DNA of 46,055 nt from positions 8,792 through 54,846 of the forward strand of contig CAYOYV010000009.1 in the NCBI GenBank assembly GCA_964408285.1. Reading direction: 5' to 3'. The translations under genes were made by a program, and so were the position numbers. A model generated the notes under the pieces. It was not told the DNA's origin, searched no databases, and worked only from the letters and a program-made list of their open reading frames with translations. Within the stretch, counting starts at the first letter, position 1; each line of letters starts with the position of its first letter. The stretch comes from an uncultured Nitrososphaerota archaeon (GTDB lineage Archaea; Thermoproteota; EX4484-205; JAAOZO01). Of the stretch, positions 6,092-8,979 are shown piece after piece.

Positions 6092-6391
6092 TCAGCCTCT
6101 TATTCCTCCTTCCCCGCAGATGACCCGATCGCCCATTCTCCTGACAAATCTGGAACAGGTGCCGCATTCGCTGACCAGCGTTGGTTCTCCATCCTGGGCG
6201 CAAGCCACAATCTCGACGGTGAAGGTTCTGTACCTTGGTGGATCTGGCTGAAGTCCCGATTGCTTGATGAATTCATCCTTGACAAAAATGGGCGAATATG
6301 AGTCCTCTGTATCGATAACGATCGGCACTTTCCTTATCCGGGGGAGAAGAGAATCCACCCCATTTGGCTTCCTATCCGCGAAGCGCCCCAT
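6092..6391 (-). CDS. Small Cys4 (Zn-binding) protein in the crenactin operon, arcadin-3-like by position
   Basis: ATG 6391 follows the upstream TAG after one base (TAG-C-ATG); 99 aa with C-x11-C-x2-C-x12-C. The arcadin-3 label rests on size and gene order only. Confidence 0.55.
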   Translation of the reverse strand: MGRFADRKPNGVDSLLPRIRKVPIVIDTEDSYSPIFVKDEFIKQSGLQPDPPRYRTFTVEIVACAQDGEPTLVSECGTCSRFVRRMGDRVICGEGGIRG

Positions 6392-6392
6392 G

Positions 6393-7052
6393 CTAGGGTT
6401 GGCCCCTTTCAACCAGGACTTCCAGCCACGGATTCTCTTGCAAGTAGGAGGGAAGTCCTTGGCTCACTCTTGGAGCTTTGAGGACCACCGGCGTTTCTGT
6501 CGATGCTATCCGAACTCCGCTTGCAGCAATTCTTCCCATCTCCGTTCTCAGCCTCTCGATTTCTTCCAGTACTGTTTCCATCTTGTCTTCCATAAGGCCT
6601 AGGGCTCTTTCGAGTGAGGCAACCCTTTCATCCAGGTGAATAAGGTCGTCGCTCGTCGAAGGGGACGGCTCTCGGCGGGCTGGCCCAAGGACCACATCGA
6701 GCTTCCTCGCAGGCAACGCTATTGCGACCCTTCTCTCGTCGAACGTAAGGAGGCCTACGCCATGCTCCGTCAGCAGTTCAGCGTCAATGGAAGAAGCATA
6801 CGATTTTGGCATGGCAAGGTAGACCTCGTTTGCCTTGCCAGACATTGAGGTGCTTCTGACCACAGCCCTGATCAGTGAATTCCTATCCGTCAATTCGTCC
6901 CTTGAAAGAGCCAACACCGCGATTATTCGCCCCTGCCCCTCAAAGACAGAGATCGGATGACCTGGCAGTCCGATCGCGACAGAGTTCTCGACTTGCCTGA
7001 GGCCTATAGATTCGAAATGCTGCCTAATTCGTCCTACGACATAGTTAGGCAT
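6393..7052 (-). CDS. rkd-2: Arcadin-2-like crenactin-binding protein
   Basis: Start overlaps the crenactin stop by 8 nt. Central heptad coiled coil (LDERVASLERALGLMEDKMETVLEEIERLRTEM). C-terminal LPSYLQENPWLEVL resembles the ENxWxxxL crenactin-binding helix of Pyrobaculum arcadin-2 (recalled, not aligned). Confidence 0.75.
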   Translation of the reverse strand: MPNYVVGRIRQHFESIGLRQVENSVAIGLPGHPISVFEGQGRIIAVLALSRDELTDRNSLIRAVVRSTSMSGKANEVYLAMPKSYASSIDAELLTEHGVGLLTFDERRVAIALPARKLDVVLGPARREPSPSTSDDLIHLDERVASLERALGLMEDKMETVLEEIERLRTEMGRIAASGVRIASTETPVVLKAPRVSQGLPSYLQENPWLEVLVERGQP

Positions 7053-8385: not shown

Positions 8386-8979
8386 TCAATGAAAGTGCAA
8401 AATCTTAGCTAGCCTATGGACGAAGTCGTCTCCCTCGATGCCCATAACTTCACGTAGGATGCCTTCAGGCTTCATTGTGAATGAGTTGTAGGTACCCTCA
8501 ATGCTCAGGGCCCCAGCCGACGGATAGGCATTCACTGTGATGTCTCGTCCAGATGCCCGAATCGAGAAGCAGAAGTTACCCCCTTCTGCCACTCGCAGTT
8601 CTTTTCCATGGGTTGTCCTCGCCTTGAGCAATATCCTTTGGAAGTCAATCGGACCTCTTGCCGAAATCCTTAGTTCGCAAAGAGGACTCTCAATGGTGGC
8701 AATTCGAAGAATCGACTCAATAAATGAAATTTCACTGACGCTTCTAAATCCAACGGACACTGCATAGTACCCGTCCCTTCGCGCAGTTGGAAGAAATCTG
8801 TATACGATGCCACCTTCCGTGAGATAGTCCCCGCCCTTTATCTCCCATACCTTTGTTTTTTCCTTGATCCTCTGGAAAACAAGCTCCTCCATCCTATCCG
8901 CCGAAAAGCTATTCCCTCTGTCGCGAAGATACACGGTGATAGCTCCCCCATAGACAACTTGATTCCCATTCTCGACCAT
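8386..8979 (-). CDS. Hypothetical soluble alpha/beta protein upstream of crenactin
   Basis: 197-aa ATG-started ORF filling the gap between the permease and crenactin; no confident family motif. Confidence 0.65.
   Translation of the reverse strand: MVENGNQVVYGGAITVYLRDRGNSFSADRMEELVFQRIKEKTKVWEIKGGDYLTEGGIVYRFLPTARRDGYYAVSVGFRSVSEISFIESILRIATIESPLCELRISARGPIDFQRILLKARTTHGKELRVAEGGNFCFSIRASGRDITVNAYPSAGALSIEGTYNSFTMKPEGILREVMGIEGDDFVHRLAKILHFH

Follow-up and report, generated by a model that had tools for sequence, protein, structure and literature searches.

The window analysed here is a stretch of 46,055 nucleotides of DNA from an uncultured Nitrososphaerota archaeon (GenBank assembly GCA_964408285.1, contig CAYOYV010000009.1, positions 8,792 to 54,846). 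On its minus strand, the gene for the archaeal actin crenactin is followed by an open reading frame (ORF) at 6393..7052, which from its ATG start encodes 219 amino acids plus the stop. The crenactin stop overlaps the start of this ORF by 8 nucleotides, and the gene is single-copy in the window genome. A preliminary description, made from the sequence alone, had called the product arcadin-2-like and had ascribed to it a restriction-endonuclease fold at the N-terminus, the loss of the catalytic residues of that fold, a heptad coiled coil and a terminal actin-binding helix. The 219-residue ORF is real, and all four features are present, far beyond chance. The protein, its parts and the adjoining crenactin lie as follows.

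6393..7052, minus strand: arcadin-2 homologue, from the ORF, 121 relatives and a profile match to Pyrobaculum-type arcadin-2
6699..7052, minus strand: N-terminal domain (N-domain), residues 1-118, a dead PD-(D/E)XK domain by AlphaFold2, Foldseek and hhalign, with the motif in none of 98 members
6906..6956, minus strand: residues 33-49 (PISVFEGQGRIIAVLAL), the beta-2/beta-3 hairpin and expected PD and ExK site, from alignments and column counts
6663..6698, minus strand: short linker, residues 119-130, of low confidence (predicted local distance difference test, pLDDT, of 59 for block 121-130)
6522..6662, minus strand: heptad coiled-coil helix, residues 131-177, from the AlphaFold2 helix, the a/d pattern and family lengths
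6456..6521, minus strand: non-conserved linker rich in proline and glutamate, residues 178-199, pLDDT 62-67
6396..6455, minus strand: conserved C-terminal tail, residues 200-219 (LPSYLQENPWLEVLVERGQP), a predicted crenactin-groove-binding helix
7045..8316, minus strand: crenactin, 423 residues, matching PDB 4cj7 (E 4e-112) and NCBIfam NF053560

The PDB entry matched by the window crenactin is the crenactin of Pyrobaculum calidifontis. Against the NCBIfam model NF053560, the protein scores 552.6 bits (E 5.6e-166), slightly below the cut-off of 630. Crenactin adjoins the arcadin-2 gene in 69 of the 78 loci matched by tblastn; these loci are not independent, several being the same place retrieved twice.

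A HMMER pass over a library of 1.84 billion proteins returned 121 relatives of the 219-residue protein at E<=1e-3, 68 of them at E<=1e-10, and nearly all are 190-260 residues long. A word-index search returned the query alone, the index being too coarse for this family. The closest relatives are 31-34 % identical and labelled Bathyarchaeota or Bathyarchaeia. Full-length matches occur in 23 of 61 related genomes, and a profile of the N-domain matches 142 of the 401 genomes sampled from the phylum, where its divergence is very deep (20-35 % identity among relatives). A pattern of the tail, built from a 17-row alignment, finds 55 loci in public genomes, labelled Bathyarchaeia, Methanomethylicia, Brockarchaeota, Caldarchaeales/Aigarchaeota, Culexarchaeia, Thermofilaceae and Thermoproteales (metagenome-assembled). 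All conservation counts given below refer to an alignment of 98 arcadin-2-family proteins.

At two loci (L029 and L045), labelled Methanomethylicota or Methanomethylicia, arcadin-2 adjoins crenactin. An arCOG survey in the preprint on Culexarchaeia (10.1101/2022.04.06.487207, taken here and below from the accessible part of its text) reports no arcadin-related proteins in Methanomethylicia.

The Pyrobaculum-type genomes were missed by a search with the single sequence. The profile of the 98-sequence family matches the arcadin-2 slot in four of four of them, with E-values from 7.8e-20 to 2.8e-14, and the matches span model positions 10-208 of 213. A hidden Markov model of the N-domain alone retrieves all four proteins as well, at E 5.6e-13 to 2.2e-8 within a small ORF set. 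At one of these loci (L114), the match is a protein of 203 residues, encoded directly after a crenactin that resembles the 4cj7 sequence. Its residues E167, R187 and R203 coincide with the ends of the arcadin-2 constructs in the literature, deltaC 1-167 and the peptide R187-R203 (PMC5173319; this and later statements concern the accessible part of that paper). With 300.3 bits, it passes the cut-off of 290 of NF053561, the NCBIfam equivalog for arcadin-2. The window protein aligns collinearly with this 203-residue protein, with 24 % identity over 210 columns and a pairwise E-value of 4e-5. Family profile, N-domain profile and pairwise alignment agree on the arcadin-2-like assignment made earlier. 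Judged by sequence and gene order, the window protein is a distant arcadin-2 homologue and the counterpart of the Pyrobaculum one, outside NCBI's narrow equivalog.

We modelled the protein with AlphaFold2 and the 98-sequence alignment, at a mean pLDDT of 87.4 and with values of 84-97 per 10-residue block over residues 1-120; this model replaced a single-sequence one, whose pLDDT was 65.1. The N-domain comprises helix 3-15, strands 19-21, 35-39 and 42-48, helix 51-69, strand 76-82, helices 83-86 and 91-96, and strands 99-104 and 109-113. Along the chain these elements run alpha, beta, beta, beta, alpha, beta, alpha, alpha, beta, beta, a series that includes the alpha-beta-beta-beta-alpha-beta core. 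In a Foldseek comparison with the PDB, the top match (E 6.7e-5), and the only one at E<=1e-3, is 3dnx, whose function is unassigned. It is followed, at probabilities of 0.8-1.0, by XisH (2inb, 2okf), the restriction enzymes PaqCI, BamHI and OkrAI, EndoMS/NucS (5gke, 2vld), Hjc (4tkd, 1hh1, 2eo0), the tRNA-splicing endonucleases (2zyz, 3ajv), SfsA and YaeQ, with nitrilase-type matches interspersed at lower probability.

Searches of named families and of known structures by sequence are silent on this domain. Pfam finds coiled-coil families only among the 98 members and none for the N-domain, and there is no NCBIfam family for it either; one sub-threshold Pfam match, TREH_N, we take as chance. 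In the PDB, a single-sequence search returns coiled-coil noise only, and the N-domain profile reaches E 0.63 at best. Aligned by hhalign with canonical Hjc from eight genomes, the N-domain gives a probability of 1.1 %, not significant, though collinear. The best score in the ESM Atlas for residues 1-120 is 0.85, below a meaningful level.

The homology lies elsewhere. At the weak end of the N-domain scan over the 401 genomes, we found ORFs of other architectures, with per-genome E-values from 4e-9 to 6e-5. The six of them that we examined carry ...PDIVA...IEVK... or near variants, and share with arcadin-2 a Y-x-(A/L)-x-P strand, a G-I-G-L strand and a V-x-E-x-x-P end. When 49 arcadin-2 N-domains are aligned by hhalign with these six archaeal PD...EVK homologues, the probability is 98.9 %, with an E-value of 3.2e-17 over 104 columns. 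Four of the six have sub-threshold Pfam Hjc matches at the motif, with NERD, HSDR_N and UPF0102 also among the sub-threshold matches; the other two match no Pfam family. Thus, the first reading of the N-terminal ~120 residues as a restriction-endonuclease fold is borne out by the AlphaFold2 model, the endonuclease matches of Foldseek and the profile-profile alignment: the N-domain has a restriction-endonuclease-like fold and descends from PD-(D/E)XK nucleases.

Two of the six (L119:2108-3088, plus strand, and L120:1324-2361, minus strand) are fusions of ~330-350 residues, in which an intact PD...EVK nuclease domain is joined to a helix-turn-helix and a nucleotidyltransferase domain; among proteins with the motif, this PD...EVK domain is the one most closely related to the arcadin-2 N-domain. 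Stand-alone PD...EVK nuclease-domain proteins of 130-170 residues are encoded at L121-L124.

In the arcadin-2 family itself, the catalytic residues are gone. An acidic residue at position 34, another at 47 and lysine at 49 are found together in none of the 98 members, and the alternative register gives none as well. Counted by column, lysine at 49 is absent from all 98 and glutamate at 47 is present in 6. A register-free scan detects [DE]xK in the beta-3 segment of 3 members and, combined with an acidic beta-2 start, in none; the same scan, as a control, detects the motif in 5 of the 6 PD...EVK homologues. The window protein has P33-I34, L47 and L49 at the aligned places, in line with the replacement of PD and ExK (HPIS, AVLAL) read in the preliminary description and with both hhalign alignments. 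The register of the hairpin shifts by one residue between the Hjc and the PD...EVK alignments, and no catalytic residue appears in either. Because none of the 98 members has the motif and homologues do have it, we regard the dead PD-(D/E)XK domain as confirmed. The strongly conserved residues of the N-domain are G17, R57, Y78, A80, P82, D90, G98, G100, L101, D105 and E111. Since most of them are common to the intact homologues, they look inherited rather than part of a new active site.

A short linker leads from the N-domain to the coiled coil. AlphaFold2 models residues 131-177 as a helix at pLDDT 77-98, and between residues 134 and 177, 12 of the 13 a/d positions are L, I, V, M or F, a value reached by 0 of 10,000 shuffles; the heptad coiled coil noted at the outset is evident in both. 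In the family, the length of the coil segment peaks at 31 residues (51 of 98), with 7 members at 38 and 6 at 45; this spacing of seven residues fits insertions of whole heptads. Complex prediction with two copies of residues 1-180 scored 0.02 against a mark of 0.42 and is uninformative either way on self-association. The linker after the coil is 17-38 residues long in the family, richest in proline and glutamate, and non-conserved.

The tail that follows, LPSYLQENPWLEVL, carries an invariant tryptophan and lines up with the peptide by which Pyrobaculum arcadin-2 plugs the groove of crenactin. Seven of its residues (L200, P201, N207, P208, W209, L213 and R216) are shared by 81-98 of the 98 members, W209 and N207 by every one. 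With the non-conserved linker separating it from the core, it answers to the terminal helix proposed before; AlphaFold2 places helices at 202-205 and 209-216. The family tail reads L-P-S-(F/Y)-x-x-(D/N)-N-P-W-(L/V)-x-(I/V)-L-x-x-R, and the Pyrobaculum type has E-N-E-W-V-K-I-L-R-S-K-R at the matching place. These last residues of the 203-residue Pyrobaculum-type arcadin-2 correspond to the peptide 187-203 crystallised on crenactin (PMC5173319).

That the Pyrobaculum tail binds the crenactin cleft and depolymerises filaments, as the preliminary description had stated, is in print (PMC5173319). There, the peptide sits in the hydrophobic groove of crenactin with a tryptophan as one main contact, and its 17 residues depolymerise crenactin filaments as well as full-length arcadin-2 does. 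Arcadin-2 without the tail is inactive, and the complex is 1:1 with a dissociation constant of 31 nM. The localisation of arcadin-2 between segregated nucleoids, also mentioned there at the outset, is likewise published, attributed to Ettema 2011 by 10.1101/2022.04.06.487207.

A few relatives depart from this architecture. Two library proteins (P0101 and P0113) have the coiled coil and, replacing the N-domain, a probable winged helix, followed by three tandem arcadin-2 tails; the match of the winged helix to HTH_20 is weak (E 0.003, below cut-off). In P0113, a zinc ribbon is added at the N-terminus, with a match, below threshold, to a domain like ORF131 of Pyrobaculum spherical virus. A genome copy of the same architecture (L118:1477-2526) ends after the winged helix, without a tail. 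Proteins of this type may belong to mobile elements that acquired crenactin-binding tails. Viral contigs scanned for the tail motif gave four pattern matches, none of them a relative, and beyond the PSV_ORF131-like match on P0113 we found no support for viruses that carry the tail. The arcadin-2 homologue of a sister genus within the same family (L115:2726-3580, minus strand) keeps the coiled coil and the tail, but its N-domain has diverged strongly: the G-x-G strand motif is gone, and the N-domain profile matches 0 of 3 genomes of this genus.

Taken as a whole, the protein is best explained, and quite probably, as the arcadin-2 homologue of the crenactin operon in this uncultured archaeon. 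By homology with the Pyrobaculum protein, its amphipathic tail helix, centred on Trp209, would insert into the hydrophobic groove of crenactin and compete there with the D-loop of the next subunit. The tail would thereby sequester crenactin monomers or dismantle filaments, as measured for the Pyrobaculum protein. The 47-residue heptad helix would oligomerise the protein, which would give two or more tails per particle. Without the catalytic Asp, Glu and Lys, canonical cutting by the N-domain should be impossible; most likely, the domain would act as a targeting or docking module, which sets the place in the cell where crenactin is released or held.

Some observations weigh against this explanation. 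With NF053561, the window protein reaches only 13.2 bits (E 0.052) against the cut-off of 290. This narrow model represents the Thermoproteales type; with its cut-off failed, family membership rests on the wider profiles and on gene order. The crenactins of the window and of Pyrobaculum are ~43 % identical by tblastn, and binding of the window tail to its crenactin is a prediction from homology. Two relatives within one genus (L117:1483-2232, minus strand, and L125) are without the coiled coil, the former with two tandem tails and the latter with one, so that multivalency is no strict rule. We had considered that duplication of the tail compensates for loss of the coil, and dropped the idea as the second coil-less relative of the genus is single-tailed. 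Finally, the window protein has isoleucine at position 111 (6720-6722), where 94 of 98 relatives and the intact homologues have glutamate.

The question that divides the possible explanations is what the N-domain does. DNA is the most attractive single candidate for the ligand on which it would dock, and a role of the protein as a dimeric DNA-to-actin adaptor is plausible. In such an adaptor, the dead nuclease domain would still hold DNA and tie the chromosome to crenactin monomers or filament ends, much as ParR does on ParM, or the protein would dissolve filaments over DNA in the manner of a nucleoid-occlusion factor. The ancestry of the domain speaks for it, with intact-motif nucleases that in some cases are joined to a winged helix and a nucleotidyltransferase, and so do P0101 and P0113, where a probable winged helix (HTH_20, E 0.003, below cut-off) stands in its place ahead of three tails. 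Partial conservation of basic residues is seen at positions 57 (80 of 98), 83 (73), 116 (57), 107 (55) and 47 (44). ParR occupies the equivalent groove of ParM, and in Pyrobaculum-type loci the Rad50/SMC-like arcadin-4 adjoins arcadin-2 (both PMC5173319). However, an arcadin-4 homologue was not found in the window genome with the L114 protein as query, and DNA binding is unmentioned in the accessible part of PMC5173319. The N-domains of the family are also mostly acidic to neutral: the median isoelectric point is 5.83, 53 of the 98 lie below 6 and only 13 above 8, and that of the window protein is 9.29. The published localisation (10.1101/2022.04.06.487207) can be listed in favour, yet it is between the nucleoids and not on them. 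We regard DNA binding by the N-domain as rather unlikely, and hold a similarly low expectation of the adaptor as a whole.

About as doubtful is the possibility that the N-domain is a mere folded scaffold or self-association module without external ligand, and the protein a simple multivalent sequesterer of crenactin monomers. The top conserved residues of the domain (Y78, A80, P82, G98, G100, L101, D105 and E111) are common to motif-bearing homologues and for this reason look like structural inheritance, not like an arcadin-specific binding site; moreover, the tail peptide alone reproduces depolymerisation in vitro (PMC5173319). But the retention of the domain in 142 of 401 genomes, across 20-35 % identity, suggests more than a spacer, and localisation at mid-cell needs some targeting determinant. 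An active nuclease with a non-canonical site is a far more remote prospect, one to which we give almost no credence. Relocated active sites are known in the PD-(D/E)XK superfamily, and acidic residues are conserved at D90 (82 of 98), D105 (74) and E111 (94), which could form one. As the same acidic positions recur in homologues that keep PD...EVK, they do not make up a replacement site; position 111 of the window protein is itself isoleucine, and the canonical triad occurs in 0 of 98.

Two more genes, likewise on the minus strand, flank the pair in the window.

6092..6391, minus strand: small four-Cys protein, 99 residues from ATG, beginning 1 nucleotide past the arcadin-2 stop
8386..8979, minus strand: 197-residue protein, 70 nucleotides upstream of crenactin, with homologues in 3 of 78 loci

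The gene of the four-Cys protein is probably the third gene of the crenactin operon. Its alignment shows a conserved C...C-x2-C...C plus a PPRYR motif, and it matches no Pfam or NCBIfam family. A homologue lies directly downstream of arcadin-2 in 21 of the 78 matched loci, labelled Bathyarchaeia, Methanomethylicia, Culexarchaeia and Nitrososphaerota; a word-index search for homologues returned the query alone, the index being too coarse for such families. We propose it as a candidate for an extra partner of the crenactin system. The 197-residue gene occupies the slot of arcadin-1 in Pyrobaculum-type loci, and the L115 locus of the sister genus has a 200-residue gene in the same slot. The product has no PDB match. 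We rejected its identification as arcadin-1, as it has no similarity to the 119-residue gene upstream of crenactin in L114.

With respect to arcadin-2 of P. calidifontis (Rkd2), the window protein is alike in that its gene adjoins crenactin and in being homologous over the whole length by profile, with a folded N-domain, a helical middle, a non-conserved linker and a conserved C-terminal Trp helix. It differs in its 24 % identity, below the equivalog cut-off of NCBIfam, and in the tail, where ENEW of the former corresponds to (D/E)NPW preceded by LPS(F/Y) in the window family. The neighbours differ as well (Rad50-like arcadin-4 there, the small four-Cys protein downstream here), and so do the hosts: Thermoproteales there, whereas the relatives of the window protein are labelled Bathyarchaeia. 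With the PD-(D/E)XK nucleases (Hjc, EndoMS/NucS, XisH and type II restriction enzymes), the N-domain shares the core fold and strand order, and a significant profile-profile homology to an unnamed archaeal PD...EVK branch. Unlike them, it has lost the catalytic Asp, Glu and Lys in all 98 members, and it has no significant sequence match to Hjc, any Pfam family or any PDB chain.

Inactivated nuclease folds kept as non-catalytic partners and reused for binding are known from ERCC1, EME1 and FAAP24. Those proteins pair with an active paralogue in DNA repair, whereas the arcadin-2 domain is joined to a cytoskeletal regulator within one chain. The tail has its own parallels in thymosin-beta4/WH2 and in the ParR helix on ParM, each a short helix in the groove of an actin fold between subdomains (PMC5173319). 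There is no sequence relationship to them, and here the helix is attached to a protein chain with a dead nuclease domain and a coiled coil. The variants with tandem tails (P0101, P0113 and L117) resemble tandem-WH2 proteins by analogy only.

FtsZ/tubulin (PF00091) was not found in the window genome, which is 93.7 % complete, with a control positive in 13 of 14 known genomes. Nor was it found in any of 5 genomes of the window family, 17 of the sister family and 4 of the Pyrobaculum type. These groups without detected FtsZ all carry crenactin and arcadin-2. Snf7 and Vps4_C were not found in the window genome either, the Snf7 control being weak. The lineages in question may, like Thermoproteales, be without both known division systems.

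To our knowledge, no regulator of crenactin other than arcadin-2 has been characterised biochemically, and crenactin is the archaeal actin most like eukaryotic F-actin. Of arcadin-2 itself, the last 17 residues are the part accounted for so far. The remainder is called simply 'the core' (PMC5173319), and reviews, in their accessible parts, treat the arcadins as regulators of unclear role. In the literature searched, which excluded subscription papers and supplements, we came across no account that derives the core from a nuclease. The gene itself joins a known family; what is new is the origin of the core domain and its inactivation, how widespread the family is, and a small number of variant architectures.

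A core made of a dead nuclease and a coiled coil gives the arcadin-2 family an evolutionary origin. It also poses concrete questions, namely DNA binding of the domain and the number of tails per particle. If the N-domain is merely a scaffold, this is a useful annotation and nothing more. It is possible, albeit with low probability, that arcadin-2 is a DNA-anchored regulator of archaeal actin, in which the exapted domain holds the chromosome and the oligomeric tails grip crenactin. If so, DNA would be coupled to filament ends in a ParR-like manner, or filaments would be dissolved in a way resembling nucleoid occlusion. A targeting domain bears on division and DNA segregation of archaea in which no FtsZ was found; in these lineages foremost, anchoring to DNA could help to coordinate chromosome segregation with actin-based division.

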